IMG/VR virus record: IMGVR_UViG_3300045988_091582
From: a virus
Length of the DNA stretch: 64,000 nucleotides
Direction: 5' to 3' (one strand)
The position numbers and the translations under genes were made by a program. The first letter of the stretch is position 1. Each line of letters opens with the position of its first letter. The notes under the pieces are model-generated. The model did not search any database. It was not told the DNA's origin and saw nothing but the letters and a program-made list of their open reading frames with translations. Below, piece after piece: positions 18,730 to 63,540 of the stretch.

Positions 18730-18813
18730 ACGGTAGTAGCTCAGTGGCTAGAGCATCTCTTTTTATAATAGGTCATTTCGAGAAGGTCATTGGTTCGAAT
18801 CCTTTCTACCGTA
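18730..18813 (+). tRNA. tRNA-like gene with expanded anticodon loop
   Basis: Perfect ACGGTAG/CTACCGT acceptor and D arm GCTC-AGTGGCTA-GAGC; anticodon stem TCTC/GAGA encloses a ~20-nt loop; T stem carries two T-T mismatches. Confidence 0.35.
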
Positions 18814-18914
18814 CAAATTTAATTAATATATTGTTAATGTGTATAAATCCTAACTAATAAATCTATTAGTATAGGTAGGTGTTACCACTATTCTCCTTAC
18901 AGAAATGTGGGCTA

Positions 18915-19553: not shown

Positions 19554-19575
19554 CTAATTTTAACAGGTGACTTAC

Positions 19576-21284: not shown

Positions 21285-21375
21285 CTATTTCTTTTATTAT
21301 ATTATTCTATTTTAAAGAGTCTAATTAGTTAATCTAGTTAGGCTCTTTTTGTTTAATTAAATAACACATTAACAT

Positions 21376-26610: not shown

Positions 26611-26612
26611 TT

Positions 26613-37809: not shown

Positions 37810-37810
37810 T

Positions 37811-37878
37811 GTAGGATTAGTGTAGCTGAAGGCGCACATCACACTTCCAATGTGTGGGTTTGATTCCCACATCCTACA
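37811..37878 (+). tRNA. tRNA-Trp(CCA)-like, compact
   Basis: GTAGGAT/ATCCTAC acceptor; anticodon arm CACAC-TTCCAAT-GTGTG; T arm GTGGG-TTTGATT-CCCAC overlaps the anticodon stem; only 68 nt. Confidence 0.45.
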
Positions 37879-38345
37879 CCATAACAAAGCTCTAGAATAC
37901 TAGTTACAGGAGCAACGTAACTTATAGGGTGCCTCTCAACGATGCATACTCGCCTATTAGGTGTCGTAGAACCTACGAACTGGAATGATTCGATGGTTTT
38001 TTGCATTCCTATAGAATCCTAAATAATAAAAATAGAGACCATAAGATTGTCTCTAACAGGGGTGATTTACCTGGGATTCTTAATTTTTTAAATTCTCCTC
38101 CTAGATATTTTATAAGTTAAACTTTAAATTTGATTTACTATGATGAAAATTTTAAAAAGAACTTTAAAAGCATTTAAGAAGGGTTGGATTTGGTATGCTA
38201 ATCAATATTGTAGATTATACATGCCTCCAATTATTTAATCTTATTATTTAATTTGTAAGTACCAAAGGGGTACTTACTGATGTTGGGTCGGGCAATAAGC
38301 TCGACTTTTTTTGTTTGTATACATTTTTTAAAAATTTTATATATT

Positions 38346-40306: not shown

Positions 40307-40806
40307 ACTTAGTTTGGCTAAAATTAATAAAGCGAATCTTAACTCATAAGTATTATGTTGCTAAATATTGTTTTCAAATAGGATTATATTGGCAAGGTAT
40401 TACTCATGATTTATCTAAATTTAGTTTTACAGAATTCTCAAGAGCTATTAAGTACTGGGATGATAATATAAGTTCATTAGCAAATGAACGTAAAATATTA
40501 GGATATAGTCAAACATTCCTTCATCATAGAGGACGAAATCCTCATCATTATGAATATTGGATACATTCTTTAGATGATGGAGGAGTTCCTGCTAGAATGC
40601 CTAAAAAATATGTTTTAGAACTTATATGTGATTATTTAGCGGCAGCTAAAACATATGGAGCTGACCCTAGAAAAGAATATACATGGTGGGCTAAACAACA
40701 ATCTCATATGAAAATCCACAAAGAAACTAAGGATTATATAACTGAAGTGTTTTATAAATATAGTATAGGTTTAACATTAAAAGAATCAATTAATGGAAAT
40801 TATTAA
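40303..40806 (+). CDS. hypothetical protein, possible HD-type metal-dependent hydrolase
   Basis: Track ORF 167 aa; His-rich motifs ITHDLSKF and LHHRGRNPHHYEYW; assignment weak. Confidence 0.4.
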   Translation: MNLVWLKLIKRILTHKYYVAKYCFQIGLYWQGITHDLSKFSFTEFSRAIKYWDDNISSLANERKILGYSQTFLHHRGRNPHHYEYWIHSLDDGGVPARMPKKYVLELICDYLAAAKTYGADPRKEYTWWAKQQSHMKIHKETKDYITEVFYKYSIGLTLKESINGNY

Positions 40807-42346
40807 TGCAACTGATGGCTACAAGCTTGGTCATCATCGTATGTACCCAGAGGGTACACAAATGGTTTATAGTAACTGGACTCCTAGAAGTAATCGTTAC
40901 TTCCCAGAAGCTACAGAAGGTTCTGTAGTATTTGGTATTCAGTACTTTGTAAAAAAGTATTTGATAGAGGAATTTAACGAATGGTTTGTTCTTCCTAAGG
41001 AAGAAGCTATTAAACAGTTTTCTTATCGTGTAGGTAACTTTGTAGATATTAATCAGGTTGGAACAAAGCATATTGAGGAGCTTTATGATTTAGAATATCT
41101 TCCTATTGAAATTAAAGCTCTTCCTGAAGGTTCTATCTGTCCTATAAGAGTACCTATGATGACTATTAAAAATACTCTTCCTGATTTCTTCTGGTTGACT
41201 AATTATTTGGAGACTCTGATTAGTTGTACTCTATGGCTTCCTTGTACTTCTGCAACAAGTGCTCGTCTTTATAAGAAGAGACTTATGGAACATGCTAAAA
41301 AGACTGGATTCCCAGAAGATGTAAATTTAGGCTTCTCTTGTCACGATTTTTCAATGAGAGGTATGGCAGGACTTGATGCATCTGTTATTTCAGGTATGGC
41401 TCATATGACCTCATTCTGTGGTAGTGAAACAATTCCTGCTATCGAAGCAGTAGAGCATTATTATAATGCAGATGTTACTAAAGAACTCGTAGCTGCAACT
41501 GTTCCGGCTTCAGAACATTCAGTAATGTGCGCAGGGGGTGAAGATGGCGAGATTGAAACATATCGTCGTCTTATTAATGATCTATATCCAACAGGTATTA
41601 TCTCAATAGTATCTGATACTTGGGATTTCTGGCAGGTAGTTGAGAAATTCTTGCCTAAGCTTAAAGCAGACATTATAAAGCGTAATGGTCGAGTAGTAAT
41701 TCGCCCTGATAGTGGTGATCCAGTAGATATTATCTGTGGTCTTCGTACAAATCCTCATTACCACACTGCGATGAAGGAAGGTAAGTATTACTGTGATTTC
41801 AATCCATTTATGGATGATGATGAAAGTCATTATGTAGAAGTATCTGAAGGTCAGTATTATGGAGCATATTATATGCTAGGTAAAATCTTTGGATGGAATA
41901 CTACAGTAAATGATTATCGTTATCCAAGCACTAAGATTGGATTGCTTTATGGAGATTCTATCACTCTAGAACGTCAACGTGATATCTATACCAGATTAGA
42001 GAGTGCTCATATGGCAGCTTGTAATCTTGTTCTTGGTATTGGATCTTACACTTATCAGTTTAAGAGTCGTGATTCTTTAGGATTCGCAGTTAAAGCAACT
42101 GCTTGTATAATTAATGGCAGACTTATAGAAATTTATAAGCATCCAAAGACTGATGATGGAACGAAGAACTCTCTCAAAGGTCTTATTAGAGTTGAAGAAG
42201 AGAATGGTAAGTATGTCGCTTATGACCAGCAGACTAAGGATGCAGAACTGCAAGGTTGTCTTAAAACAATCTTTGTAGATGGAGAATTAGTAAGAGAATA
42301 TTCTCTTTCTGAAATTCGTGAACGTGTAAATTCAACATTAGTATGA
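40793..42346 (+). CDS. nadV: nicotinamide phosphoribosyltransferase (NAMPT/NadV)
   Basis: 517 aa; N-terminal ATDGYKLGHHRMYPEGT.MVYSN...R.. and overall length match the NAMPT family. Confidence 0.7.
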   Translation: MEIINATDGYKLGHHRMYPEGTQMVYSNWTPRSNRYFPEATEGSVVFGIQYFVKKYLIEEFNEWFVLPKEEAIKQFSYRVGNFVDINQVGTKHIEELYDLEYLPIEIKALPEGSICPIRVPMMTIKNTLPDFFWLTNYLETLISCTLWLPCTSATSARLYKKRLMEHAKKTGFPEDVNLGFSCHDFSMRGMAGLDASVISGMAHMTSFCGSETIPAIEAVEHYYNADVTKELVAATVPASEHSVMCAGGEDGEIETYRRLINDLYPTGIISIVSDTWDFWQVVEKFLPKLKADIIKRNGRVVIRPDSGDPVDIICGLRTNPHYHTAMKEGKYYCDFNPFMDDDESHYVEVSEGQYYGAYYMLGKIFGWNTTVNDYRYPSTKIGLLYGDSITLERQRDIYTRLESAHMAACNLVLGIGSYTYQFKSRDSLGFAVKATACIINGRLIEIYKHPKTDDGTKNSLKGLIRVEEENGKYVAYDQQTKDAELQGCLKTIFVDGELVREYSLSEIRERVNSTLV

Positions 42347-46181: not shown

Positions 46182-46513
46182 TGAAATTCTTAGATAGATT
46201 AATTTTAATATTAATTTTTATTACTATTATAGGGTCTACTATCTTTTTATATAGAGGATTTAAATCTACTACTGTAATGCCTACAGATACCTTAGAAAGA
46301 AAAATAGACTCATTAAATAGTAAGAAAAATTCTATTAAAGTTAATATCAATAAGTGTGATACTGCTATCTACTATAATAAAACTATCTATGTTAAAGAGA
46401 AGGACAATATTATTAAGCAGTCTCCTGATAGCGACATGCAGTTTTTCACAAACTACATTCGAGAAGTCGGGAGAAAACTTCTTATTGACACCGTATCAAT
46501 TAAAAATAACTAA
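46181..46513 (+). CDS. membrane-anchored hypothetical protein
   Basis: Track ORF 110 aa; N-terminal TM helix. Confidence 0.45.
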   Translation: MKFLDRLILILIFITIIGSTIFLYRGFKSTTVMPTDTLERKIDSLNSKKNSIKVNINKCDTAIYYNKTIYVKEKDNIIKQSPDSDMQFFTNYIREVGRKLLIDTVSIKNN

Positions 46514-46754
46514 TCTTATTTTTAATGAGCATAAATATTTACTAGTAAATGATAGTCTACAAAAAATTCAAATAAATAACTACAAATCTTTGGTAAATAC
46601 AATGGATAGTACGCTAACATATAAAGATTATCAAATAAAGATTCAATCTGATAAAAATAATGAATTGTATATACAAAATAAAAAATTATCAAAATTGAAT
46701 TATTTATTTGGAGGTATAAGTATATTATCTATAATATGTGCTCTAATACATTAG
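46389..46754 (+). CDS. lipoprotein
   Basis: Within track ORF 46356..46754; MLKRRTILLSSLLIATCSFSQ lipobox signal peptide; overlaps the preceding gene out of frame by ~125 nt. Confidence 0.4.
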   Translation: MLKRRTILLSSLLIATCSFSQTTFEKSGENFLLTPYQLKITNLIFNEHKYLLVNDSLQKIQINNYKSLVNTMDSTLTYKDYQIKIQSDKNNELYIQNKKLSKLNYLFGGISILSIICALIH

Positions 46755-46962
46755 ATACTTACATAAAGGATACTGACGGTAAGAAATTTAAATTTCCAGA
46801 TAGAGATTGTAAGAATTGTAAAAGATATAAATGCTTAGTAAATATGGACATGCTTAAATGTAATTTTGCTAAGTATGGATGCAGAAATTATAATCCTAGA
46901 TAACTAAAATTACTAAAAATTGATAAATAATATTTACGCCTTGAAAAAGGATTACCATATTA

Positions 46963-47317: not shown

Positions 47318-48304
47318 ATGACAACAGTTTTAGGTGATAAACTCAATCAAGCTTTAGAAGCTAAGAATAATGATGTAGAAACATTTCTCTGGAAAGGTTC
47401 CAGAAAAATTGTAGATGGTGAACGTGTTCAGTCTTCCATAAAAATGGTAGATATGACTGAAGAAGAATTACGTAAAGCATATAAACATTGTGAATCAATG
47501 CTTTATAGTGACAACTATGAAAATCCTGGACGACGAGTTTTGTTGGAACAGATTGAAGACCAAAGAACTCGATGCAATGCTGAGTTGTTCTTAATTTGGC
47601 TATTGTACCCAGGTGAAGGTAGTACTAGACAAGGTATTGTAAGAACTAGTTTCTTTAATATGCTCAATCAACAGATTACTTCTCAGGCAGAACAGTTTGC
47701 TAAAGATAATGCAGAAAGAGGTGAGGGAGAGACAAATGCTAGCGCTATTGCAGAAACTCTCTTTAAAGAATGGACTCTTAATGATATTATGAATAGTGAT
47801 GAAGATTCATTTACTATGTTTGCTTCATTGCCATTGTATATTGTTAGAGAAGCTTGTTTGTCTGCTTTAGGTAAATGTGTTCGTAAGCATATTACTCTTA
47901 CATTCATTACTGAGCTTGGATTGTGGTTTACACGTTCTGAATTATTAGAATTAAATAAGAAAGATGAGAATGGTCGTTTAATAGATAGAATTAAGCAAGT
48001 TGCTGAACTTCTAAATATTAAACTGAGAGATCCTAAGAATCCTGAAGACAAGAAAGGTCTTGTTTTAAAAATTGATGATAGAAAAGGCTTAACTCTAAAA
48101 GAGTTTAGTGCAATGCTTACTTTCCGTAAGGATAAATATGATAAGCGTTATAATGATCTGACTAAAGTACAATTAGAAACCTTAAGAGATAAAGTTTTAC
48201 TTCATCTTGAAAATAAGGTTAGATGGCAAGCTTCAGAATGGGAGAAGCGTATTAAGCAAATCAAAGCAGTAGCTGCTTACAATGGCTACAAACTCTCTGA
48301 TTGA
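47318..48304 (+). CDS. hypothetical protein
   Basis: Track ORF 328 aa. Confidence 0.5.
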   Translation: MTTVLGDKLNQALEAKNNDVETFLWKGSRKIVDGERVQSSIKMVDMTEEELRKAYKHCESMLYSDNYENPGRRVLLEQIEDQRTRCNAELFLIWLLYPGEGSTRQGIVRTSFFNMLNQQITSQAEQFAKDNAERGEGETNASAIAETLFKEWTLNDIMNSDEDSFTMFASLPLYIVREACLSALGKCVRKHITLTFITELGLWFTRSELLELNKKDENGRLIDRIKQVAELLNIKLRDPKNPEDKKGLVLKIDDRKGLTLKEFSAMLTFRKDKYDKRYNDLTKVQLETLRDKVLLHLENKVRWQASEWEKRIKQIKAVAAYNGYKLSD

Positions 48305-49893
48305 AGGAGAATTATTTCATAAAATCACTAGAGACGAACGACAAGAAGAGTGTCGTAGAAAATGGATAAAAAATCGTTGTGTAGGGACAATAGTAGCGTC
48401 CACTGGCTTTGGTACTGTAAAAGCGGATCATATATCTGTTAATTACAATGCCGTTCCGATAGAGGAATCTTCGGAATTATTATCGAGCAAAATCGGTGGA
48501 AGCCCTATAGAGGGTAATACCGAGGTAATAGAAGAAATTAAAGAATCTTCTACACCGTACAGCATAGAGAATGAACCTAATAAATAGTCTAGTTACTAAC
48601 TAGACTATTTTTATTAGAATATAATTTCTCCACGAGTGTTCGATGCCCCAACTGAAATAAGTGGGTAAAAATTTATGCGGGGCTTATTAGTAATAGTAAG
48701 AAGTATAGATAAAAAGCTATACGATAACAAGACCGAAATCCAGAATAGGACTAAACTGTATTAAAACAGTGCTAAAACACTTTCCACAATATCGAGTACT
48801 AATAATTGTACCAACAGAAACTTTACAAAAACAATGGTGTGGTTATATAGATTCTAATGGGCTAGGATTAAGTTGTGATGTACAAATAATAAACACTGTA
48901 ATAAAACATCCTGCCAAATATGATCTTTTAGTATTAGATGAGGCGCATAGATATGCAGCTGAGACTTTTGTAAGATTGTTTGAAGTAATAAAATACCAAT
49001 TTATCTTAGGTCTTACAGCTACTTTTGAGCGTCTTGATGGTAGAGATAAAATATTAGCAAAATACTGTCCAGTAATTGATACTATTGATATTAACACTTG
49101 TCTTGCAAATGGTTGGGTTAGCCCATATAAAGAATATCTAGTCTTAGTAAATGTTGATGATTTAGAAGAATATGAAAAAATAAATAAAGAATTCATTTCT
49201 CATTTTGAATTCTTCGGATTCTCTTGGGAGTTAGTTAATAAATTAGCTGGTCCTATGGGTTGGCGAAATAAACTACTCCTAAGAGATTCTATGTGTAGTG
49301 ATCCTAACAAGAAATCTGAAGTACTACAAAGTATAAATTATCATGCTATCAGATTTTGGGCTACTATGCACGAAAAGAAAGCTTTCATAAATAATCACCC
49401 AAAGAAAATTGAAATAGTAAAGAAAATTATAGAAGCTAGAAAGGATAAAAAAATAATAACTTTTGCTAATAATATTAAAATGGCAGAAAAAATTCCTAAT
49501 GCTACTGTATATTCTAGTAGAACTTCTAAGAAAAGAAGTGCTACAGCTATTGAAGATTTTAACTCTGGAAAGATAACTTTATTATCTACAGTAAAAAAAG
49601 CTGATGAAGGACTTGATGTAAAAGGTCTTTCTGTAGCTATTATATTTGGATTAGATAGTTCAACTACTAGAGCTTGTCAACGAAGAGGAAGGTCAATCCG
49701 TTTTGAAAAAGGTAAGACAGCAGAGATATTCAATATAGTATTAAATAGGACTCAAGAAACTAAGTGGTTTTATGATTCTCATAAGGGAGATTCTTTTATA
49801 ACTATAGACGAATCAGAATTGGATAAAGTATTACAAGGTAAAGACTTTACCCCAGGTGAAAAGATAGTTCCTAAATTTGATTTTAGATTCTGA
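48282..49893 (+). CDS. SF2 (DEAH) helicase, gene split by a 349-nt intervening sequence
   Basis: Exon 1 48282-48413 ends ...TRDERQEECRRKW..CVGTIVASTGFG; exon 2 48763-49893 begins KTVLKHFPQYRVLIIVPT..., has VLDEAH and GLTATF; joining restores Walker A ASTGFGKT. Confidence 0.55.
48414..48762 (+). other. intervening sequence in helicase gene (intron-like, type unresolved)
   Basis: 349 nt; shifts frame 0 to frame 1 as exon joining requires; exon-1 frame reads in for 58 codons to a stop; contains a terminator-like hairpin. Confidence 0.4.
48586..48613 (+). terminator. terminator-like hairpin inside the intervening sequence
   Basis: TAGTCTAGTTACTAACTAGACTA + TTTTT. Confidence 0.4.
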
Positions 49894-50583: not shown

Positions 50584-51662
50584 GTTTAGAAAGTTTTAAA
50601 CGTTCGATAGAGCTTGGTAGACAAGGATTTAATCAAGGATTTAGTATGGGTCTTCCTAAATTGGAAGAATTAATAGGAGGTATTACTAAAAGTACCATGA
50701 CTCTTTTATTTGCGAGTTCAGGACAAGGTAAAAGTTCATGCGTATTATATTCTTATATATACGCTCCTTTAAAAGAGCATTTAGAAGATAATAAATTAAG
50801 AATTATTTTCTTTGCTCTTGAAATGAAAGAAGACTTTATTATAGCTAAATTATTAAGTACTTATTTATATGATACCTATCATATTGTTGTAACTGCTAAA
50901 CAAATATTATCTATAGGTAAAGATTATATTTTACCTGACGATTTATATGAGTATGTACAACTAGGATATGATTGGCTAGAAAAAGTATATAAAGTACTAA
51001 CTATATACGAAGGCTCTTTTAATTCTGATAAGCTCATAAAAGTTACAATGGAAGAGCTTAAAAAAGAAGGAGAATTTATAGAGAATAAATATATTCCGAA
51101 AGACCCTGAAAAAGTAATACTTTCAGTAACTGACCATGTTGGATTGATCCAGCCATCTAATGGAAGGAACAGAAAAGGAGAGATTGATGATTATACTAAT
51201 AAATTAGTTATCATTAGAAATAAAACAGGATTATCTCCAATTATTGTTATGCAATCCAATAGAGCAGTGGCTAACATGGAAAGAAAAAAGAATGAAGCTT
51301 TCATGGAGCCAATGGTGGAGGATATTAAGGAAACATCCACTGTTTCAGAGAATTCTGAAATTATTTTAGCTGTATATAATCCTCAAGTTGATAAAAGAAC
51401 AACTTATAGAGGTTATCAAGTTAAAGAAATGGGTTATAGGTTCCGAAGTATTCTTGTACTAAAGTCAAGATATGGAGAAAACCAAGTAGCTGATTGTTGT
51501 TTCTTTGACGGTGCAGTAAATAAGTGGATGGAAATGCCTAAGCCAGAAGAAATCTTTGATTATTCTAGATATCGAGCTACAAATAACAGTTCAACAGATA
51601 ATATAATAAAGAATGAAGATAAAGATGAAAAAGTGAAAAATAAATTAGACTATAGTTTATGA
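50580..51662 (+). CDS. DnaB-like replicative helicase (RecA-fold domain)
   Basis: 360 aa; GF..GLPKLEELIGGI..STMTLLFASSGQGKSS Walker A in DnaB C-terminal-domain context; Walker B-like VTDHVGLI. Confidence 0.55.
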   Translation: MSLESFKRSIELGRQGFNQGFSMGLPKLEELIGGITKSTMTLLFASSGQGKSSCVLYSYIYAPLKEHLEDNKLRIIFFALEMKEDFIIAKLLSTYLYDTYHIVVTAKQILSIGKDYILPDDLYEYVQLGYDWLEKVYKVLTIYEGSFNSDKLIKVTMEELKKEGEFIENKYIPKDPEKVILSVTDHVGLIQPSNGRNRKGEIDDYTNKLVIIRNKTGLSPIIVMQSNRAVANMERKKNEAFMEPMVEDIKETSTVSENSEIILAVYNPQVDKRTTYRGYQVKEMGYRFRSILVLKSRYGENQVADCCFFDGAVNKWMEMPKPEEIFDYSRYRATNNSSTDNIIKNEDKDEKVKNKLDYSL

Positions 51663-52411
51663 TTATTGGTTTAGCAGGTTTGAGTGGCACCGGAAAAAGC
51701 ACTTCTTTGCGTTATTTAGATTATAAAACAACATTTATTATTAGTTGTACTAATAAGCAGCTTCAAATTCCTGGATTTAGACGTAAATACAAGAAAGCTG
51801 AAGTTGTAAATAAAAAGCCAGTTGGAAATTGGCTTGTATCTAATGATTATACTACTATTGGTAAGTGGTTGAAAATTATTGATAAATTACGTCCTGATAT
51901 TAAGACAGTAGTTGTAGATGATGCTAACTATTGTCTTTCAAATAATATAATGGATTCTGCTCTTGAAAAAGGTTGGGATAAGCACGTTGTGTTTGCTAAA
52001 AATTACTATGATTTAATCATGGAAGCTAGTGAACTGCGTGAGGATCTTAATGTAGTATTCATTAGTCATATTATTAATGCTGGTACTGACCTCGACGAAC
52101 ATTGGCAGTTATATTCTAGTGGTAAAATGTTGGATAGAACCGTAAATATTGACGGTTTATTTTCTTATATTTTATATACTGAACGCCAGGTTGATGATGA
52201 TGGCAATATTAGTTATTTCTTTAGAACTAAAACCAACGGTAACGATACTTGTCGTAGTGTTGACGGATGTTTTAAAGATAAACTGATTGAACCTAATATG
52301 CAGAAGGTTTTAGATACTATCCATAACTTTGAATATAGTGAGGAAGAAGAAATCGCAGATGACAATAATGAAACCAATAATGATGACAATATTTTAAATG
52401 AAGCTAATTAA
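51659..52411 (+). CDS. P-loop NTPase (possible helicase loader)
   Basis: 250 aa; Walker A GLAGLSGTGKST, Walker B VVVDDAN; acidic C-terminus. Confidence 0.5.
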   Translation: MIIGLAGLSGTGKSTSLRYLDYKTTFIISCTNKQLQIPGFRRKYKKAEVVNKKPVGNWLVSNDYTTIGKWLKIIDKLRPDIKTVVVDDANYCLSNNIMDSALEKGWDKHVVFAKNYYDLIMEASELREDLNVVFISHIINAGTDLDEHWQLYSSGKMLDRTVNIDGLFSYILYTERQVDDDGNISYFFRTKTNGNDTCRSVDGCFKDKLIEPNMQKVLDTIHNFEYSEEEEIADDNNETNNDDNILNEAN

Positions 52412-53015: not shown

Positions 53016-53786
53016 ATGAATTTAAATTTTGGTGGTCTTGGTGATATTAATCCTACAAGTAAGAAAGGTCTTCGTCCTTATGGAATTTATCTCGTTCAGT
53101 TAAAAAGTGTAGAAACTAAAGAGGGTAAAGGTAAGCAAGACCCTGACACAACTTGGAAATCTCTAGTACTTCATTTTGAAGGTGAACAAGGAACTTATCA
53201 AGAATCATTGTTTTATCCTAATGAAAGTTCTGCTAAAAGATATGAGGGTAAGAGAAAAGATTCTAAAGGTGTAGAGTTCCCATATGTACTTCCTTCAGCA
53301 TTTGAGCAGCTTAAGGGTTTTATGCTGCATATTATAACAGTAGTAGGAGGTGATAAGGCTAAAGAATTGTTTGTAACTAAAGCTCCTGCTTGTAAGAGTA
53401 CTGACCAATTCATGCAGCTTTTCCAGGCAGTATTGACTAAGTATTGTATGAATAAAAACTTTTATTTAAAGCTTAGTGGTCGTAAGGAAAAGAAAAAGGA
53501 TGAAAAAGGAATTATGAAGGAAACTGGTAATGTATTTGCCAAAATTCCTGATATTGGAGCTATTAATAGTGATGGACAGTTCTATATCCGTGATAATTTT
53601 GCTAGCTTAGAGGAAGATAAATTGTCATTCTCTAGTTATGAGATTAAACAGAAGGAGGATATGGAGAAGCGTAAGCCTACTGCTCCTGTGCCAGCAGCTG
53701 ATTCAGAAGAGGCTAAATCTATTGACTCTACTGAAGGCAAGGAGGCTCAAGATGAAGACTTCGACGCTATGCTGGCAGATATGTAG
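53016..53786 (+). CDS. putative single-stranded DNA-binding protein
   Basis: 256 aa; SSB-like acidic C-terminal tip ...QDEDFDAMLADM; sits in the replication module; inference only. Confidence 0.4.
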   Translation: MNLNFGGLGDINPTSKKGLRPYGIYLVQLKSVETKEGKGKQDPDTTWKSLVLHFEGEQGTYQESLFYPNESSAKRYEGKRKDSKGVEFPYVLPSAFEQLKGFMLHIITVVGGDKAKELFVTKAPACKSTDQFMQLFQAVLTKYCMNKNFYLKLSGRKEKKKDEKGIMKETGNVFAKIPDIGAINSDGQFYIRDNFASLEEDKLSFSSYEIKQKEDMEKRKPTAPVPAADSEEAKSIDSTEGKEAQDEDFDAMLADM

Positions 53787-53809
53787 TAATTATAAAGTAA
53801 GTAGTTTTT

Positions 53810-54820
53810 ATGGAATTAGATTTTTCTTATAAACCAGATATTACTAAGGACTACTTACTTAAATATAACACAGAGGAAGCCTATATGGAGTATTATCTTG
53901 GCGTAAAAGTTTCAAAAAAATTAATTTGTAATCCTTTACGTAAAGATAAAAATCCTACGGCTTCCTTTTTTCGTAACTCTAAAGGAGAACTTATATTTCA
54001 TGATTTTAATGGAAGTTTTTATGGAAACTTTATATCTGTAATTATGACTAAATATGCTTGTAAATACCATCAAGCATTAGACATTATAGCTAAAGATTTT
54101 GGCTTATTAAAAGGACAAAATAATTATCATTCTGTAATACAATCAAGCACTTCTTTTGTTAAAACAAACGAGCCAGCAGATATACGAGTAGAAATAAAAA
54201 ATTTCTCAGAAGATGAATTAAAATGGTGGAGTAAGCAAGGAGTTTCTTTAGAATTACTAAATAAATATAAAGTATATTCTTGTCGTACTGTATTTTTAAA
54301 TGGTAATATTCAAACTATAAAGACCAAAGATAACTTTATCTTCGGATATTATGGAGGAACAATGCAAGGTAAAGAATTATGGAGAATTTATTATCCTAAA
54401 CGTAAGGAATATAGATTTCTAACAAATTGGCCCTCTAAAAAGGTTCAGGGTTATAGTCAGTTACCTAAAAAAGGTAATTTATTAGTCATAACTAAAAGTA
54501 TGAAAGATACTATGTGTTTAAGGGGTTTAGGTGTAACAGCTTGTGCTCCAAATAGTGAGACACAATGGTTATCTGAAAACATGTTAAATGATCTAAAAGA
54601 AAGATTTACTTATATAGTAACTTTTTATGATAATGATAGACCTGGAATGTTTAATATGGCTAAAATAAGAAGAAATCATCCAGAATTACTTTATTTCTTT
54701 ATACCTCATAAATTCAAAGTAAAAGATATAAGTGATTTTTATAAAAAATATGGTCGACAGAATACTTTAAAATTTATAAAGTATTATATAAAAAAATTAA
54801 GTAACTATGTCAAAAAGTAA
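53810..54820 (+). CDS. DNA primase (Toprim domain)
   Basis: 336 aa; Toprim acidic motif YIVTFYDNDRPG; zinc-binding-like N-terminus. Confidence 0.5.
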   Translation: MELDFSYKPDITKDYLLKYNTEEAYMEYYLGVKVSKKLICNPLRKDKNPTASFFRNSKGELIFHDFNGSFYGNFISVIMTKYACKYHQALDIIAKDFGLLKGQNNYHSVIQSSTSFVKTNEPADIRVEIKNFSEDELKWWSKQGVSLELLNKYKVYSCRTVFLNGNIQTIKTKDNFIFGYYGGTMQGKELWRIYYPKRKEYRFLTNWPSKKVQGYSQLPKKGNLLVITKSMKDTMCLRGLGVTACAPNSETQWLSENMLNDLKERFTYIVTFYDNDRPGMFNMAKIRRNHPELLYFFIPHKFKVKDISDFYKKYGRQNTLKFIKYYIKKLSNYVKK

Positions 54821-54866
54821 TTAGAATCTGAATACTGCTATTAGAATAACATATAAGAATGGCGAT

Positions 54867-55358
54867 GTGCACGATTATACATCTATAGAAGAATGCTCCG
54901 AAAAAACTAAAATAAGTCAGGCAGCTCTTAAAATTAGATGTAATAAATCTGGAAAAATGGCTGATGGCACTTTATATGAATGGATAGATAGCCATACTAA
55001 GAAGAGTTATCAAGCTAAAAAGAGTCGTAGGAAAGGACAAAAATATGAATTAGATATAATACACGAGCTTACAGATTTAGGTTTTAAGGGATTAAAAAGC
55101 TCTAGATCAGAATCCCGTAACTTAGATAATGCAAAAATAGATATTGCAGAAACTGAAGATCATTTAAGTTGTTATATTCAATGTAAAGCTACTGCTAATA
55201 CTCCAAATATTGAAAAAATCTCAGAGGAATGTAATTATAAAGACCGTCCTCTAGCAATATTTTGGAAAAAGCAAAAACCTGAAGTAGGAACTAAATGTCC
55301 AGAGTTTGTACTTATACCTAAAGAATATTTTTATAAATTAATTAAGCATGAAATCTGA
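54867..55358 (+). CDS. hypothetical protein
   Basis: Track ORF 163 aa. Confidence 0.45.
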   Translation: MHDYTSIEECSEKTKISQAALKIRCNKSGKMADGTLYEWIDSHTKKSYQAKKSRRKGQKYELDIIHELTDLGFKGLKSSRSESRNLDNAKIDIAETEDHLSCYIQCKATANTPNIEKISEECNYKDRPLAIFWKKQKPEVGTKCPEFVLIPKEYFYKLIKHEI

Positions 55359-55404
55359 ATAATATATAAAATTAATACATTCTAAGAATCCTGATTTATA
55401 GTGT

Positions 55405-56517
55405 ATGACAGAGTACACAGGAGCTAAATGTATTATGACTGTACAATGTAAAATATGTGGAAATATATTTAAAAGAAGAGCAGATTCTCTAAAAATAAAC
55501 TGTACTTGCCCAACTTGCAGTAAATTAGCTAAATTAGATAAAACTAAAAATAAATTTTTAGATTATATTCGGCTACATAACATTAAGTTAATAGGAACTT
55601 ATATAGATACAAAGTCTAAGATAAAATATAAGTGTTTAAAATGTGGTTATGTATGGAGCACCACTCCAGAATCAATAATGCAAGAACATGGTTGTGCAAA
55701 ATGTGCTTCTCATATAAGTTATAAATTGACTACAGAAGATTTTATAGAAAAAGCCAAACAAGTGCAATAGGGCAATTACGATTATTCAAATACAAAGTAT
55801 ACTGTAGCTAATGCAAAATTAACAATAGGTTGCCCTAGACATGGTTTATTTGAAATTTTTCCAAATAATTTTATAAGAAGAGGTATATGTCCAAAATGCA
55901 GCATCGAATAGCGCGCTTCAAATAGAAGATTATCTATTAAAGATTTTGTAGAAAAAGCTCGGCGAGTTCATGGAAACAAGTATGATTATAGTAAAGTAAA
56001 ATACTTTAATAGACAAACAAAAGTATCCATAATATGTCCTACACATGGGGAATTTATGCAAACTCCTGCACACCATTTAAAAGGTTGTGGATGTTAGAAA
56101 TGCAGTTAGTCACATGGAGAAAATTTTGTGGAACAATATTTATAGTCTAAAAATATTTTATTTCAATAGTAGTACGTTGTACATGTTCCTGAAAATATTA
56201 GAAGTTCAGGGAAAATATATGTTGATTTTTATATAAGATCTTTAAACACAATTATTGAATATAATGGTAAACAACATTATATTCCTATAAAACATTTTGG
56301 AGGATAGTTAGCATTTGATTCTTAGAAAAAACGTGATAACTATTTACGGCGATATTGTTTGGATAATAAAATTAGATTAATTGAATTACCTGAGGGAATA
56401 AGTTTTGATATATTGCGAGATTATCTAGATACTTATTTAATAGATAGCCTCCAACAATGGTTCCTATGGATTTCTTTTATACTTTATTAGAATGTTATTC
56501 TAAAAGTAATAATTTAA
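55405..56517 (+). CDS. homing-endonuclease-like protein (Zn-ribbon repeats + DUF559/Vsr-like PD-(D/E)xK), TAG-recoded
   Basis: Track ORF 55405..55770 continues in frame to TAA 56515-56517 through ~10 TAG; repeated KYDYSKVKY..IICP.HGEF..GCGC modules; YVDFYI...IEYNGKQHY nuclease motif. Confidence 0.55.
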
Positions 56518-56518
56518 T

Positions 56519-56707
56519 ATGAGAGAACTATTAACCTTAATAGTAATAGATTTTATAATAAGTATAATATTAATTTTACTTAAGATTTCTGGGATATTAT
56601 TATGGAGTTGGATAACATTAGCAGTGGTAATATTTTTATCACTTCCAATTACCATGATAATATTATTTATTATTATAATGATAATTATATATAACAATAC
56701 CAAATGA
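56519..56707 (+). CDS. small membrane protein
   Basis: Track ORF 62 aa; two hydrophobic helices; opposite-strand ORF 56500..56754 judged spurious. Confidence 0.35.
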   Translation: MRELLTLIVIDFIISIILILLKISGILLWSWITLAVVIFLSLPITMIILFIIIMIIIYNNTK

Positions 56708-56949: not shown

Positions 56950-57482
56950 AATTAAGAATTGGTTTAGATTTAGATGATACATTAAATGAGTTTATGAATC
57001 CATATTTAAAAAGATTTGGATATCCTAAGTCTGATGGAGAAATAACAAAAAATGTACAACAAGTTTTAATAAAAGACAGAGAATGGTGGATAAATCTTCC
57101 AGTAAAAAATAAAATAAACTTTATACCTGAATTATATTGTACTAAAAGAGTATGCAATAAAGACTATAGTAAAACATGGCTAAAGAATAATGGTTATCCT
57201 AGTAAACCTGTTTATCAAGTCTTATGCCAGCGTGCTAATAAAGCTCGATATATAAAAGGTAGAGTTGATATTTTCATTGATGATTCTGTTAGTAATTTTA
57301 TTCAGATGAATCTAGCAGGATTACCTTGCTTATTAATAGCTTCTGAATCTAATGAAAAATGGGGTCCTTATGGTAAGATTTATAGTTTAGATAAAGAAGA
57401 GATAGAATATGGGTATGAATGTATAAAAGAGTCGGAAGACTTTAATAATTACTTACGTGAAATTAAGTCAAATTTCTATTAA
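56946..57482 (+). CDS. HAD-superfamily 5'(3')-deoxyribonucleotidase-like hydrolase
   Basis: 178 aa; IGLDLDDTL matches HAD motif I; VDIFIDDS matches motif IV. Confidence 0.55.
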   Translation: MKLRIGLDLDDTLNEFMNPYLKRFGYPKSDGEITKNVQQVLIKDREWWINLPVKNKINFIPELYCTKRVCNKDYSKTWLKNNGYPSKPVYQVLCQRANKARYIKGRVDIFIDDSVSNFIQMNLAGLPCLLIASESNEKWGPYGKIYSLDKEEIEYGYECIKESEDFNNYLREIKSNFY

Positions 57483-58503
57483 ACCTCTGATAGAGACTTT
57501 AAGAGTTGAAGATATTGATGACAATACTTATTTCTCAGAAAAGTATAATAATTATATCTCAAACTCTAGATTATCTAAAATAAATCCAGATCAAGATGGT
57601 TCTCCAACAGAGTTCTTTGATAATTGGGGTAAGACTAAGTTAAATACAACTAGCTTAGAATTTGGTAGTTGGTTGCATACTTTAGTTTTACAACCTAATG
57701 ACTTCTTTCTAACAGACGTTAGCAGACCTACTGCTAAAATGGGATCAATGGCAGATTATATTTATAAGAAAACACAAGGTATCAATGTTACTAATGATAT
57801 TATATTAGAAGCATCTGATAAATGTGATTATTTTAAAGATAAAATGTCAGATAAAAAAATAGAAAAAGTATTAGCAGACTGCACTCAATACTGGTGTGAT
57901 AGAAAAGCTTTTGAAAAAGAAAATAATGATACTAGAACACCAATATTTACAGATCCTAAAAATCACGCTAAACTAAAAGTCTGTCTAGAATCTTTAAATA
58001 GTGATACACAAATTCAATCTTTACTAAACCCTGAAGGATTACTAGAACAACCAATTATTGGTAATGAGATAGCTTTCCTTATAGATGTTTTAGTAGAGGC
58101 TCCAGAGCATAAACCTTTTATACTAAAAATTAAATCAAAACTTGATAATTATAGTATAGATAAAGAAGAAGGAATAATCACTGTAAATGATTTAAAAACC
58201 ACAGGAGATTTGATAAATAATTTTGCTAAAGGAGCTCTTATTAAATATCACTATTATAGAGAAATGGCTTTATATAGTTGGTTATTAACTATGGCTGCTA
58301 AGAAGAATTATAACATTGAGAATCCTAAAATTAGAAGTAATTTTTTAGTAGTAGAAACTATTCCAAATTTTAATACTAAAGTAGTTCCTATGACTAGAGA
58401 ACTTTTTAATAAAGGATTTAAAGAGTTTACTCACCTTCTTAAATTAGTAGCATTCTATTGTATGCATGGTTATGAGGGATTCGGAATTACTCAAGAGACC
58501 TGA
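57457..58503 (+). CDS. PD-(D/E)xK nuclease (RecB/YqaJ-like)
   Basis: 348 aa; ITVNDLKTTGD (D..E.K core) and FLVVETIPN. Confidence 0.5.
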   Translation: MKLSQISIKPLIETLRVEDIDDNTYFSEKYNNYISNSRLSKINPDQDGSPTEFFDNWGKTKLNTTSLEFGSWLHTLVLQPNDFFLTDVSRPTAKMGSMADYIYKKTQGINVTNDIILEASDKCDYFKDKMSDKKIEKVLADCTQYWCDRKAFEKENNDTRTPIFTDPKNHAKLKVCLESLNSDTQIQSLLNPEGLLEQPIIGNEIAFLIDVLVEAPEHKPFILKIKSKLDNYSIDKEEGIITVNDLKTTGDLINNFAKGALIKYHYYREMALYSWLLTMAAKKNYNIENPKIRSNFLVVETIPNFNTKVVPMTRELFNKGFKEFTHLLKLVAFYCMHGYEGFGITQET

Positions 58504-61731: not shown

Positions 61732-62344
61732 CAGAGAAGACGTTTTACAGGAAGCTTTACATAAGTGTTTTGTAGAAATGTATAGATGGGCTCAGCCTTC
61801 TATAGATTTGGATGAGCTTATTAAGAATGGATTTAAAGATAGTGAGAAAGATCCTTTATATGCTAGACATTATTTATCTCAAGATAATTTTAATTATATA
61901 AGAGGTACTTATATGAATGCTTATGGTATTAATGATACTTGGGATGATACTTTTGAAATATTAATTAAGCAACTCTTAGAAGGAGGTATAGAAGATGACT
62001 ATAAAGAAGCTACTCCTGATAAACCTGCTTATAGAGATTATAAAAAAGTTCTCCCATTAAAAGAAGTTCTTACTTGCCCAGGAGAAGTTAATACTATTAT
62101 TAACTATATAAAGAAATGTCAAAACTTTTATAAAGGACATTGCTATGAAACTAATAAATTTTCTTGTAGTATTGCATTAGGTCCTAGTCCTAATTGTAAT
62201 GCAAAACATGTTACAGAATATTGGCATAGTCATGGAAAACCAGAGTTTAAAATAGTAGAATATAATATCTCAGATGTTATTTATGGAGACGGAGACTTTG
62301 AAGAAGTATCTGATGAAGAATTTCTTGCTACATTAAGATGGTAA
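61724..62344 (+). CDS. hypothetical protein
   Basis: Track ORF 206 aa. Confidence 0.5.
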   Translation: MISREDVLQEALHKCFVEMYRWAQPSIDLDELIKNGFKDSEKDPLYARHYLSQDNFNYIRGTYMNAYGINDTWDDTFEILIKQLLEGGIEDDYKEATPDKPAYRDYKKVLPLKEVLTCPGEVNTIINYIKKCQNFYKGHCYETNKFSCSIALGPSPNCNAKHVTEYWHSHGKPEFKIVEYNISDVIYGDGDFEEVSDEEFLATLRW

Positions 62345-62562
62345 CTAATGACATTACTAAAGATAACAAAACACTACTTATCTGCTATAAAAATTCATAT
62401 CCCTGTGGGCAAATATTATACAACGGGAGTAAGTGGATATATATTACTAGTGTAGATATAAATAAAGTTAATTATGCGGAAGATACTCCACATAATTTAG
62501 TACAAAAATTATTAGATAAAGAAATTATTGATAACATAATGTTTTTCACATACAATGGATAG
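62338..62562 (+). CDS. small paralogous protein, copy C
   Basis: Track ORF 74 aa; ...LICYKNSYPCGQILYNGSKWIY resembles copies A and B. Confidence 0.45.
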   Translation: MVTNDITKDNKTLLICYKNSYPCGQILYNGSKWIYITSVDINKVNYAEDTPHNLVQKLLDKEIIDNIMFFTYNG

Positions 62563-63349
62563 AATGCCAACTGAATTTACTTTAGAAGAAGTACTAGAAG
62601 GAAAAGCTACTAGTATTAAAGGTAAAGATTATCTTCCTACTAGAGGATATATTGAACCTTTCTTAGAAAGAGTTCAAAAATTAACTTCTGATATTAGAGT
62701 ACATGTAAAATTACCTGATCAAATTACTTATAATAAAAATGGTGATATAGATACTGCTGATTTAACTTTTAATAGAGTATGGTTAGAAGCAGTATTACCA
62801 AATGAATATTCAGTAGATAATCATAAAGAAACTATAAATATGTTGTATGGATTAGATACTAGAAAACCTATAATAAAGTTTTTTAGAACAGGATTAAATA
62901 TGGCATGTTTAAATATGTGTGTATTTAATCCTAGTTATATAAGGGTTTCTGAATTATCTCCTGATAAACCTGTGGATTATTCTCCTGTAAAAACTTTAGT
63001 AGAAGCTACTGATTCATTAGGAGTTTTTCTTAAAACTTTGAAAAATACTGAATTTAACACTTCAGAATCTAATATAAATATCAGTTTAGGATATTGGGTA
63101 AGACAAGCTATAACTGAATTTGAAGATAACGGTTTTGGTAAAATAAAGTTAGCTACTTCTGAAGTTATAGCTTCTTATAAACGTATGTTTGAAGATTCTA
63201 AATCTGATTATTATATAGGAATTAATGGAGAAGCTTCAATGTTTGAAGTTTATAATAGTTTTACAGAAGGTATTTCAAATGATAATAATAAGGATATTAT
63301 GAATAAATTTGAAAAATGTGTATTACTTAAAAAGATTTTAAATTTGTAA
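62555..63349 (+). CDS. hypothetical protein
   Basis: Track ORF 264 aa. Confidence 0.5.
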   Translation: MDRMPTEFTLEEVLEGKATSIKGKDYLPTRGYIEPFLERVQKLTSDIRVHVKLPDQITYNKNGDIDTADLTFNRVWLEAVLPNEYSVDNHKETINMLYGLDTRKPIIKFFRTGLNMACLNMCVFNPSYIRVSELSPDKPVDYSPVKTLVEATDSLGVFLKTLKNTEFNTSESNINISLGYWVRQAITEFEDNGFGKIKLATSEVIASYKRMFEDSKSDYYIGINGEASMFEVYNSFTEGISNDNNKDIMNKFEKCVLLKKILNL

Positions 63350-63540
63350 AAATTTAGTTGCTTTTTGTATAAATTTATATATAGAATTATTGATTTTAAA
63401 ATAATAGATACACTCTCTTTTTTAGATGAAACAAAAATTTAATTTTTGAAATAACTATATAAGCACTATATTATTAGTTCAGTACTAGTATTATAGTGCT
63501 TATTTCGTAGATGATTTAAAATGTTAATTTATAAATGTTA

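Follow-up and report, generated by a model that had tools for sequence, protein, structure and literature searches.

The window, i.e. the whole 64-kb stretch of phage DNA analysed here, probably contains a free-standing homing-endonuclease gene (HEG), which encodes four zinc ribbons and a Vsr-like nuclease, lies at the 3′ end of a resolvase-like gene within the replication/recombination operon and is written in the late code of the phage, in which TAG stands for glutamine (Table 1). An earlier note on this DNA had described an ORF that closes at TAG 55768, with a frame running on to TAA 56515 through about ten TAG codons. The exact number is ten; every in-frame stop between 55405 and 56517 was TAG, and neither TAA nor TGA occurred before the terminal TAA (56515-56517). 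TAG accounts for only 27% of the stop trinucleotides on the HEG strand, and the probability of ten out of ten in-frame stops being TAG was about 2e-6. The probability of finding no TAA or TGA over 384 codons was about 2e-12 at the given composition, and a chance open frame was rejected on both counts. The same TAG positions were present in independent assemblies (ENA, IMG/VR and Logan). The start proposed at 55405 had to be revised: the orthologues L002/P0001, L008 and L003/P0003 begin with MKSE(Q/TAG)YI... at an ATG equivalent to 55348, which is located 57 nt upstream and overlaps the resolvase stop by 11 nt. Nine of the TAGs counted earlier lie in conserved coding sequence, whereas the tenth, at 56488, lies in a frame-shifted relic; for this reason neither this TAG nor the TAA stop was used as evidence of recoding.

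Table 1. Position of the HEG, its parts and related elements in the window
Feature	Position	Strand	Remarks
Recoded late block, codon-usage reference	1158..9801	+	TAG = 65% of Gln codons
Predicted suppressor-type tRNA, anticodon UUA	18730..18814	+	ARAGORN; Rfam tRNA 51 bits
Resolvase-like nuclease gene (phrog_244), target/host gene	54807..55358	+	conserved in-frame TAG 54822 if ATG 54807 is the start
Segment differing from HE-less relative	55077..56454	+	232 bp in its place in MT835492 (blastn)
Variant resolvase 3′ portion linked to HEG	55077..55358	+	diverged from MT835492
Free-standing HEG	55348..56517	+	limits from orthologues; frame to TAA 56515 here
Four zinc-ribbon modules (treble-clef; CapR/DUF4379/DUF723-type), presumed DNA-binding array	55348..56112	+	
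Window-specific in-frame TAA, codon 5	55360..55362	+	TAG in L002 and L008; CAA in L003
Extra in-frame TAG, codon 18, upstream of 55405	55399..55401	+	TAG in window, L002, L008 and L003
Standard-code ORF	55405..55770	+	121 aa, zinc-ribbon modules only; closes at first internal TAG
Nine TAG (Gln) codons inside conserved coding sequence	55768..56325	+	55768, 55909, 56095, 56107, 56143, 56167, 56170, 56305, 56323
Vsr-like/EDxHD-type PD-(D/E)XK nuclease domain	56113..56436	+	predicted fold; D 56224, E 56257, H 56275, D 56335
Window-specific 7-nt deletion site (GATA[TCAGATA]GCC)	56443..56447	+	DNA comparison with L002
Relic of original resolvase 3′ end (MVPMDFFYTLLECYSKSNNLI, then stop)	56457..56522	+	matches end of HE-less MT835492 resolvase gene

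Comparison with orthologous sequences indicates that TAG is read as glutamine in the HEG. At codon 254 the window has TAG where both L002 and L008 have CAG, codon 273 is CAA in the window, TAG in L002 and CAG in L008, and TAG and glutamine codons were exchanged relative to L003 at more than ten positions. For the window and its orthologues dN/dS was 0.14-0.19 over 364 codons (0.16-0.19 for the window against orthologues and 0.14 between orthologues). Values of 0.14-0.17 were obtained for codons 142-364, i.e. 3′ of the first internal TAG, compared with 0.7-2.1 for a +1-frame control. The claim that the gene is TAG-recoded was thus borne out both by the codon exchanges and by the constraint beyond the first internal TAG. 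Loss of homology past this TAG, which the earlier note had named as the outcome contradicting its reading, was not observed: the TAG=Q translation matched phrog_559 over residues 107-331 (E=7e-71), a match that spans the TAGs. Peptides predicted across the TAG-to-Q positions include AKQVQQGNYDYSNTK, CSIEQR and CSQSHGENFVEQYLQSK. The protein had 1760 homologues at E<=1e-5, one of which (P0001) was 94% identical over the full length. With TAG as the only in-frame stop, interchange with CAA/CAG and selection maintained across the TAGs, the gene shows features expected of late-type genes using code 15 (TAG = Gln).

The glutamine codons of the HEG comprise ten TAG (53%), nine CAA and no CAG; in the late block the corresponding numbers are 103, 47 and 9 (Fisher p=0.32 for HEG versus late block). 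Fifty-one early ORFs open under the standard code (10,417 codons) contained 0 TAG, 156 CAA and 113 CAG. As these ORFs had been selected as TAG-free, their TAG count is zero by construction, and the CAG share of CAA plus CAG was therefore taken as an independent contrast; it was 0/9 in the HEG and 113/269 in the early ORFs (p=0.012). The glutamine codon usage of the HEG is that of the recoded late block and not that of the early ORFs. One ORF of the late block also showed a transglycosylase domain of a kind known from virion proteins.

The genes around the HEG (DnaB-like helicase, Sak4-like, primase and exonuclease VIII-like) are all open in the standard code, and the flanking helicase, primase and exonuclease genes contain no TAG. 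The earlier description of the surroundings as a standard-code replication module therefore applies to these genes, but the module is not absolutely free of TAG, since, with ATG 54807 as the start, the sixth codon of the resolvase-like gene would be a conserved TAG; the standard-code ORF of this gene starts at GTG 54867. About ten ORFs of the early region seem to end at TAG. Between 10 and 64 kb the HEG was the only homology-supported ORF requiring more than two TAG read-throughs. Two further early-region ORFs with many TAGs (34253-34543 and 37691-38026) were dismissed as low-complexity sequence or overlaps with real genes or RNA, and a window-specific segment of 1.85 kb (40398-42250) was rejected as an endonuclease, as its sequence reads as a NAMPT-like gene. 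A terminator-like site on the + strand was not found near the HEG, and the scan for sigma-70 promoters and terminators was uninformative (31 sites, with 25.9 +/- 5.1 expected). TAG-rich islands of the same kind were observed at at least ten other loci: homologues with 2-12 TAGs and mostly TAG-free neighbours occur in L003, L008-L011, L016, L020, L029, L047, L048 and L072. A short paralogue without any TAG was found in L045, in a genome that also holds a TAG-rich copy. With this recurrence, the occurrence of mobile nucleases in late code inside early modules becomes a testable rule. Standard-code gene callers truncate such genes, here to 121 aa, so that homing endonucleases are under-annotated in recoded phages, and predictors that assign the code block by block may misassign such islands.

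A canonical suppressor tRNA with a CUA anticodon was not detected by ARAGORN or Rfam in the 64 kb searched, out of some 160 kb in the whole genome, or in the partial records of two relatives, MT835492 and MT835539; all predictions of suppressor type obtained from these sequences had the anticodon UUA. The only well-supported suppressor-like tRNA of the window carries the anticodon UUA and differs by one base from its counterpart in MT835539. That this tRNA is the actual decoder of TAG, acting like an ochre suppressor, is very improbable; in that case the TAA at codon 5 could be read by it as well. In-frame TAA codons of L020 and L029, considered as signs of TAA read-through, proved to be stops upstream of start codons, and a late-gene TAG/TAA pair in the comparison with MT835539 was due to a misaligned alignment edge; TAA read-through thus found no support. 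An exact-pattern scan of IMG/VR for the UUA tRNA yielded nothing. A second ARAGORN prediction, tRNA-Sup(tta) at 19183-19277, was distrusted as a suppressor, as its counterpart in MT835539 is an ordinary tRNA-Glu(UUC), relative to which the window has 19 nt inserted. The three hits of a regular-expression scan for CUA anticodon stem-loops all fell within coding sequence. A non-canonical tRNA-like element with CUA in its loop was present at 18914-18995, but was rejected as a CUA suppressor; its fold was no better than that of shuffled sequences (z -1.5) and in the L088 homologue the first anticodon position is occupied by A and not by C. The HEG may depend on a suppressor tRNA for its expression, as had been proposed before.

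With TAG translated as glutamine, both DUF4379 (30.3 bits, cut-off 24.5) and CapR (25.1 bits, cut-off 24.2) exceeded their Pfam cut-offs, in agreement with the zinc-ribbon repeats noticed earlier; DUF723 was sub-threshold in the window protein (12.8-15 bits) and reached 48.9 bits in the homologue P0084. The Cys/His columns, arranged as paired ligand sets, were invariant across the four repeats. The residues D293, E304, H310 and D330 of the C-terminal domain were conserved at >=90% in 66 homologues. The composite E...D...H...D motif of the EDxHD class (Vsr E25, D51, H69 and D97) may be represented here; its first Glu (in S-x-G/L-E) is a consensus residue only. The AF2 model of the protein (mean pLDDT 90) displays the Vsr-like variant of the PD-(D/E)XK fold. 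When searched against all PDB chains, the sequence produced nothing above noise (E>=0.47), and the link to Vsr was therefore drawn from the structure model. Regarding the proposed DUF559/Vsr-like C-terminus, the quoted motifs are present and the predicted fold is Vsr-like, whereas Pfam DUF559 stayed below threshold on the isolated domain (E=0.17). PHROG 559 and GenBank annotations label the protein as HNH. No HNH Pfam family turned up at E<=10, no HNH motif was seen and the sole nuclease-like domain folds like Vsr; the HNH label seems to reflect habit in annotation. T5orf172 likewise gave no match with the window protein.

The HEG is free-standing. Residence within an intron or intein was rejected, since the upstream gene is complete with its own stop, the HEG start overlaps it and the Rfam scan of the whole window found no intron family. 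The gene is also mobile. MT835492, which is 94-97% identical, lacks it at the exact site, with clean flanks of 96-97% identity, and so do 13 closely related IMG/VR contigs; the HE-less state was the commoner one (13 versus about 3 contigs). This agrees with the behaviour of a selfish element, for which comparison with related genomes had been suggested in the earlier note. A distinct paralogue, 43% identical, occupies the same 3′ junction in L091. By contrast, the idea that the gene had moved in from the recoded compartment was not upheld: orthologues are located at the same site in phages that are only about 69% identical in DNA, with turnover of TAG, CAG and CAA in place.

The 13 HE-less relatives carry an alternative resolvase 3′ allele, and the variant allele of the window tracks with the HEG, i.e. 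a polymorphism of HE+ and HE- alleles is linked to the resolvase allele. The variant 3′ portion may be a co-conversion tract or a resistant allele. Identity to L003, a distant HE+ phage, reached 85-95% over positions 55038-55277, compared with 45-66% over the 5′ part of the resolvase gene and about 65% over the HEG. Resolvase residues 54-163 (from about 55026) were >=92% identical in L090 and L092 (tblastn), and through WKKQK they differed by one residue in L002 and L003. Judged by these identities, distant HE+ phages resemble each other more in the resolvase 3′ segment than in the HEG, a pattern that simple co-transfer of a single cassette does not predict. Downstream, the following gene starts (56519) within the relic of the original resolvase end, an overlap also present in the HE-less allele, and orthologues read this relic in frame as the C-terminal tail of the endonuclease. 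By comparing the HE+ allele of the window with the HE- allele of MT835492, located at about 30.85-31.25 kb, the candidate target of a new Vsr-like endonuclease can be defined.

These observations are consistent with the following course of events. The HEG would probably be co-transcribed with the early/middle replication genes, as there is no intergenic space and its ATG overlaps the resolvase stop. Under the standard code of the host, possibly a Prevotella, ribosomes would halt at the TAGs, in the orthologues as early as codons 5 and 18, and no nuclease would be made; in the window the longest possible product would be the 121-aa zinc-ribbon fragment. Once TAG-to-Gln decoding, which the recoded late genes need as well, is active, the full-length enzyme would be produced. 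Since the gene is written in the late code, its product is probably made only after the phage has switched codes, and late expression would thus be read from the code. In co-infecting relatives whose allele lacks the HEG, the enzyme would then cut close to where the resolvase gene ends, and recombinational repair would copy the HEG along with the adjoining variant 3′ segment of the resolvase gene. The original 3′ end of this gene, now displaced, serves as the C-terminal tail and stop codon of the HEG.

The TAGs might have been selected as a translational timer. It is possible, though doubtful, that the HEG family uses the code switch in this way systematically, with in-frame TAG (TGA in opal-recoded phages) favoured by selection in numerous independent lineages because it restricts the nuclease to the late stage. 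If so, the late nuclease would meet replicated co-infecting genomes as targets and templates and early self-damage would be avoided, and stop-codon recoding would police or serve mobile elements in addition to lysis and structural genes. The TAGs could instead reflect tolerance. A tentative explanation along this line is neutral drift of the HEG to the TAG equilibrium of the genome, late-only translation being a non-adaptive by-product; a gene dispensable to the phage would experience no selection against the C-to-T changes that turn CAG into TAG. The low GC content of the genome (30%), the continuing turnover of TAG and CAG between close orthologues and the late block, in which nearly all CAG has become TAG (9 versus 103), the same end state as in the HEG, speak for drift. 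It is opposed by the purifying selection on the HEG (dN/dS about 0.15), according to which its product, which can be made only after the code switch, must matter. Also, the one clearly accessory early-region gene examined, the window-specific NAMPT-like ORF at 40781-42346, contains no TAG, and the same islands recur in at least ten lineages of the family. Neither the NAMPT-like ORF nor the recurrence of the islands separates permitted from selected TAGs.

Two changes are private to the window copy. At codon 5, the TAA probably represents a nonsense lesion, judged from the orthologous codons, and ATG 55405 would thereby become the first usable start. Owing to the 7-nt deletion, the final 24 codons have left the frame conserved in orthologues, and TAG 56488 and the TAA stop therefore lie in what remains, out of frame, of the 3′ end of the neighbouring gene; L002, L008, L003 and P0002-P0004 keep the tail ...Q-PPA(I/M)(I/V)P(M/I)D(F/Y)FY... 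in frame. Because of these two lesions the window copy may be inactive, and its sequence suggests that it may be N-terminally truncated or beginning to decay. That it is already a decaying pseudogene, with both changes marking the onset of the degeneration usual for HEGs, is conceivable but rather unlikely. The lesions being absent from L002, L008 and L003, which have TAG or CAA at codon 5 and an in-frame tail, would fit such decay. However, no other frameshift and no other TAA or TGA occurred across 364 codons, and the dN/dS of the window copy (0.16-0.19) was judged no higher than that between orthologues (0.14). Restart at ATG 55405 could cost only 19 residues, the lost tail lies outside the nuclease domain of the AF2 model, and the nuclease and three zinc-ribbon modules are intact.

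Less likely still is a domesticated late nuclease or DNA-binding factor, serving competitor exclusion or the degradation of host or satellite DNA, of which the 121-aa product might act early as a CapR-like repressor. In other systems, zinc fingers of the CapR type have been recruited as repressors (PMC10448857), and the gene has been kept at one site, under purifying selection, across phages about 69% identical in DNA. Its presence or absence among genomes 94-97% identical, with the HE-less state prevailing, is however typical of a selfish element. An early short product is also not conserved, since the TAGs at codons 5 and 18 of the orthologues precede 55405, and ATG 55405 itself is not conserved (L003 has CISEY). 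Finally, true stops followed by a dead remnant or by sequencing or assembly noise are practically ruled out: the early-region ORFs seemingly ending at TAG would suit this view, but it is contradicted by the exclusive use of TAG (P about 2e-6), the lack of TAA and TGA (P about 2e-12), the strong homology and purifying selection downstream and the repetition of the TAG positions in independent assemblies.

The preferred reading, a mobile free-standing HEG in late code, has parallels in known systems. The seg and mob genes of T4-type phages encode free-standing homing endonucleases that spread by intronless homing with co-conversion of flanking markers, and T4-type homing endonucleases are gated by late promoters or mRNA structure. 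Like seg and mob, the HEG lies between or at the end of conserved genes, varies among close relatives and has a linked divergent flank. It differs from them in its nuclease family, in the in-frame fusion of its ORF to the target-gene 3′ end that was displaced and in its translation, which would be gated by stop-codon recoding. I-Bth0305I of Bacillus phage 0305phi8-36 is an EDxHD homing endonuclease encoded by a group I intron in recA, with NUMOD/HTH DNA binding (PMC3239194). The D-to-H spacing of 17 in the HEG equals that of D196-H213 in I-Bth0305I, whereas the HEG is free-standing, as are Hef-type phage enzymes, of which free-standing members are named in the same report (PMC3239194), carries four zinc-ribbon modules in place of NUMOD/HTH and contains in-frame TAGs. 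T5orf172 (GIY-YIG-type) phage homing endonucleases carry CapR/DUF723/DUF4379 zinc-finger arrays (Barth et al. 2023, PMC10448857). The HEG shares with them a 'beads-on-a-string' array as the presumed DNA-recognition part, a position next to essential replication genes and at a boundary of sequence exchange between related phages; its catalytic domain is, in contrast, predicted to be Vsr-like and not T5orf172/GIY-YIG.

The direct conceptual precedent comes from Agate phages, in which a group I intron within an early gene encodes a TGA-recoded endonuclease that favours the recoded stop; Borges et al. (bioRxiv 10.1101/2021.08.26.457843) proposed that its in-frame stops delay the endonuclease until late infection. 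Of the four families that they found preferentially recoded in TAG crAss-like phages, none was a TAG-recoded endonuclease (10.1101/2021.08.26.457843). With so similar a published case the HEG extends a known idea. Both genes lie in the early region of a stop-recoded gut phage and are enriched in the recoded stop. The Agate gene is intron-encoded with TGA = Trp; new in the HEG are the TAG = Gln code, the Vsr-like/EDxHD nuclease with zinc-ribbon arrays and the free-standing arrangement fused to a displaced tail. Moreover, the pattern of the HEG was found at more than ten loci and was accompanied by presence and absence of the gene at the population level.

Read from ATG 55405, the endonuclease gene runs to TAA at 56515-56517 through exactly ten internal stops, all of them TAG, as the earlier note had described (about ten TAGs); in the standard code the ORF ends at the first of these, so that 121 aa are open (55405-55770), also as described. 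With TAG comprising 27% of stop trinucleotides in this strand of 30% GC, the probability of ten out of ten stops being TAG was about 2e-6, and that of a TAA/TGA-free run of 384 codons, calculated from composition, was about 2e-12. The TAG-only open frame is real and chance is excluded. Translation with TAG as Gln and homology search, suggested beforehand as a check, gave a match to phrog_559 (E=7e-71, residues 107-331), so the frame past the TAG has homologues. The protein has 1760 homologues in the database; along its whole length it shares 94% identity with one of them, P0001.

Orthologue DNA was recovered for three homologues, i.e. the close orthologue loci L002 (ENA contig) and L008 (IMG/VR) and the distant endonuclease-containing phage L003 (158.8-kb Logan contig). 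Their in-frame stops were solely TAG (13, 11 and 12 codons, respectively). The window has TAG at codon 254, where both L002 and L008 have CAG; codon 273 reads CAA, TAG and CAG in the window, L002 and L008, respectively, and swaps between TAG and Gln codons were observed in both directions at more than ten positions when the window was compared with L003. Among the three close orthologues (window copy, L002 and L008), dN/dS was 0.14-0.19 over 364 codons and 0.14-0.17 in the part that follows the first internal TAG (codons 142-364); the controls gave 0.7-2.1 (+1 frame) and 0.05-0.08 (neighbouring primase). These comparisons show that the TAGs lie within coding sequence and are read as Gln.

In the orthologues the protein starts MKSE(Q)YIKLIHSKNPDL(Q)CMTEY, and the corresponding ATG of the window lies at 55348, which gives an 11-nt overlap with the resolvase stop (55356-55358) and brings in one more TAG, at 55399. 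Codon 5 (55360) is TAA in the window, TAG in L002 and L008 and CAA in L003. Near the end of the gene, 7 nt that L002 has are missing from the window (GATA[TCAGATA]GCC, about 56443-56447). The orthologue tail continues in frame as ...Q-PPA(I/M)(I/V)P(M/I)D(F/Y)FY..., the close orthologues and P0001 ending with ...FFYTLLECYSK(S/N)NNLI*, whereas the window tail consists of 24 frame-shifted codons unlike those of the orthologues. In the relative without the endonuclease gene, the resolvase gene ends with sequence that matches 56457-56522 of the window. Because the window-specific 7-nt loss shifts the frame of the tail, the tenth TAG (56488) is an accident of the shifted frame. Both lesions, the TAA at codon 5 and the 7-nt loss, are private to the window copy, and its first usable start is probably ATG 55405.

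The repeated Zn-ribbon modules noticed earlier were recovered as four repeats with invariant Cys/His ligands in an alignment of 66 homologues, and Pfam matches to DUF4379 (treble-clef zinc finger, 30.3 bits) and to the CapR homology domain (25.1 bits) were both over cut-off; DUF723 was also found in homologues. CapR/DUF723/DUF4379 zinc fingers are the DNA-binding arrays described in phage homing endonucleases (PMC10448857). In the C-terminal block, D293, E304, H310 and D330 are conserved at 90% or above in the 66-homologue alignment. This block had been read as a DUF559/Vsr-like nuclease. Foldseek agreed on Vsr for the nuclease domain of the predicted structure; the DUF559 match in Pfam was sub-threshold. 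The AlphaFold2 model of P0001 had a mean pLDDT of 90, and a PDB sequence search with the endonuclease protein gave no match. An 'EDxHD' family of Vsr-like homing endonucleases has been defined by I-Bth0305I (PMC3239194). The 'HNH' label of phrog_559 was not supported.

Features of the window considered in the analysis
Feature	Position	Strand	Remarks
Large ORFs of the late block	1158-9801	+	5-48 in-frame TAGs per ORF
UUA-anticodon tRNA	18730-18814		ARAGORN; Rfam 51 bits; one base differs from MT835539 counterpart
Non-canonical tRNA-like element	18914-18995		UUCUAAA (CUA) at anticodon-loop position
ORFs with TAG, then TAA/TGA	21373-21705, 26311-26631, 46317-46766, 48186-48599, 53016-53789, 62317-62574		and others
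DnaB-like helicase	50646-51659		neighbour of endonuclease gene
Sak4-like annealing protein	51659-52408		neighbour of endonuclease gene
DNA primase	53810-54817		neighbour of endonuclease gene
Resolvase-like nuclease, phrog_244	54867-55358		directly upstream of endonuclease gene
In-frame TAGs, frame from 55405	55768, 55909, 56095, 56107, 56143, 56167, 56170, 56305, 56323, 56488	+	
Exonuclease VIII-like gene	57457-58500		neighbour of endonuclease gene

The window derives from a human-gut phage with 92-97% identity to the unannotated GenBank scaffolds MT835492 and MT835539. One ORF of the late block carries a virion-type transglycosylase domain, and nearly all long ORFs beyond about 12 kb are open in the standard code. 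The claim that the endonuclease gene is embedded in a standard-code replication module held for its replication and recombination neighbours, but is qualified by the resolvase-like gene, whose codon 6 (54822) is a conserved in-frame TAG if ATG 54807 is taken as its start. This early TAG is also present in MT835492 and, at codon 3, in L003 (9466-9474). Since the N-terminal extension (window 54807-54824 region) is conserved at the protein level, a longer, suppression-dependent version of this 'early' gene may exist as well. In about ten early-region ORFs the apparent stop is TAG, and an in-frame TAA or TGA comes 1-11 codons later; these second stops look like backups that would keep C-terminal extensions short after TAG has become a Gln codon. 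A 521-aa ORF at 40781-42346 (segment 40398-42250), absent from MT835492 and by eye resembling nicotinamide phosphoribosyltransferase, contains no TAG at all and would thus seem to be an accessory gene remaining in the standard code.

Gln codons in the late block were TAG 103, CAA 47 and CAG 9, in the endonuclease gene TAG 10, CAA 9 and CAG 0, and in 51 ORFs open in the standard code (10,417 codons) TAG 0 by construction, CAA 156 and CAG 113. Usage in the endonuclease gene did not differ from the late set (p=0.32); CAG is missing from it and nearly so from the late genes (versus early, p=0.012). The contrast in TAG share with the early set (p=1e-13) is non-independent, that set being defined as TAG-free. 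In late genes (1158-9801 versus 12000-64000) TAG in effect took the place of CAG, not CAA, and Gln content is about twice that of early genes. The remaining TAG-rich 'ORFs' of the early region were rejected as genes. Among 80 homologous loci in IMG/VR, in-frame stops were TAG only in 11 and TGA only in four. Homologues with 2-12 TAGs, next to flanking ORFs with mostly none, were observed in L003, L008-L011, L016, L020, L029, L047, L048 and L072, and the genome of L045, a short paralogue without TAG, also holds a TAG-rich copy.

No CUA-anticodon tRNA was detected by ARAGORN or Rfam in the window, MT835492 or MT835539. The T stem of the UUA-anticodon tRNA contains two U-U mismatches, and the molecule also shows either a long variable arm or an 11-nt insert. 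Ochre suppressors of E. coli with UUA anticodons read UAG as well. No evidence of TAA decoding was found in the homologue loci or the late-gene comparison. A second UUA call (19183-19277) was not accepted as a suppressor: it is homologous to a normal tRNA-Glu(UUC) of MT835539, but its anticodon arm carries 19 inserted nt. The acceptor stem (7 bp) and the T arm of the non-canonical element are both perfectly paired, but its overall fold is unconvincing, and neither ARAGORN nor Rfam called it in the window. Its homologue in L088 (IMG/VR contig 3300045988_079570) has AUA in place of CUA and retains the acceptor stem via a compensatory G-C to A-T change.

Directly 3' of tRNA-Gln(UUG), about 270 bp (19563-19830) are 89-90% identical to Prevotella Lak megaphages (e.g. 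MK250029, 461683-461954), which are otherwise unrelated to the window phage and are counted among TAG-recoded phages by Borges et al. (bioRxiv 10.1101/2021.08.26.457843). The first 100 nt or so look tRNA-like (acceptor and T arm), but the loop has 8 nt and there is a long additional region; the segment matched no Rfam family and folded no better than shuffles. Possible readings are a shared non-coding RNA and a recoding-linked mobile piece. A tRNA-Trp(CCA) look-alike with encoded CCA end (37811-37885, GTAGGAT...ATCCTACACCA) was unreported by ARAGORN and by Rfam at gathering threshold. Downstream of it, to about 38020, lie some 130 nt of GC-richer, possibly structured sequence, and the area partly overlaps the window-specific segment 37381-37850.

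Because the endonuclease gene has no space for a promoter of its own and a scan, which is weak evidence, revealed no + strand terminator nearby, it is likely co-transcribed with the replication genes. The nuclease domain could not be made before TAG is decoded as Gln; after the code switch the full protein would be made and could attack co-infecting genomes lacking the gene. As the protein is under purifying selection and its translation would be possible only after the switch, we infer that the endonuclease acts late. The TAGs may be selected as a timer or may simply be tolerated. Borges et al. (bioRxiv 10.1101/2021.08.26.457843) reported preferential use of TGA by a group I intron endonuclease that is inserted in an early gene of TGA-recoded Agate phages, and proposed that its production is delayed by the in-frame stops. 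The idea of a recoded early-region endonuclease is already known and the window gene is a further example, differing in its code, its nuclease family and in being free-standing; it adds recurrence and population-level mobility evidence.

The comparison of related genomes suggested earlier revealed presence and absence at this site. MT835492 aligns at 96-97% on both flanks and has 232 bp in place of window 55077-56454. In a survey of the resolvase locus in IMG/VR, 13 closely related contigs lacked the endonuclease gene, and all 13 carried a resolvase 3' allele of the MT835492 type (94-99% identical). The window-type allele (at least 92%) was found in the endonuclease-containing contigs L090 (= L008) and L092, and also in L002 and L003. 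Presence and absence with a linked allele are the signatures expected of homing with co-conversion by a putative cleavage activity. The earlier suggestion that the gene had moved in from the recoded compartment was not supported, because it has long been resident here and its TAG codons have turned over in situ. Between the window and L003, phages otherwise 45-70% identical, the segment 55038-55277 stands out with 85-95% identity, exceeding the endonuclease gene (about 65%) and the 5' part of the resolvase gene (45-66%). Simple co-transfer leaves the higher conservation of this linked segment unexplained; the segment may be the recognition region, a resistant allele that was exchanged recently, or a hot spot of recombination.

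Other paralogues were observed at this site and elsewhere in related genomes. L091 has a different one (43% identical, three TAGs) at the same site, fused to the same ...MDFFYTLLECYSKSNNLI tail, and TAG-rich paralogues lie between primase and resolvase in L029 and L047. The contig of L016/L103, a close relative (exonuclease VIII protein 98% identical), has no gene here and carries another paralogue at the equivalent of window ~63.35 kb. This second paralogue (L016 6004-7347, IMG/VR 3300045988_105372; 447 aa, two TAGs) is intergenic and has no counterpart at window ~63350-63440; its frame likewise ends by entering flanking target sequence (...IIDTLSFLDETK...).
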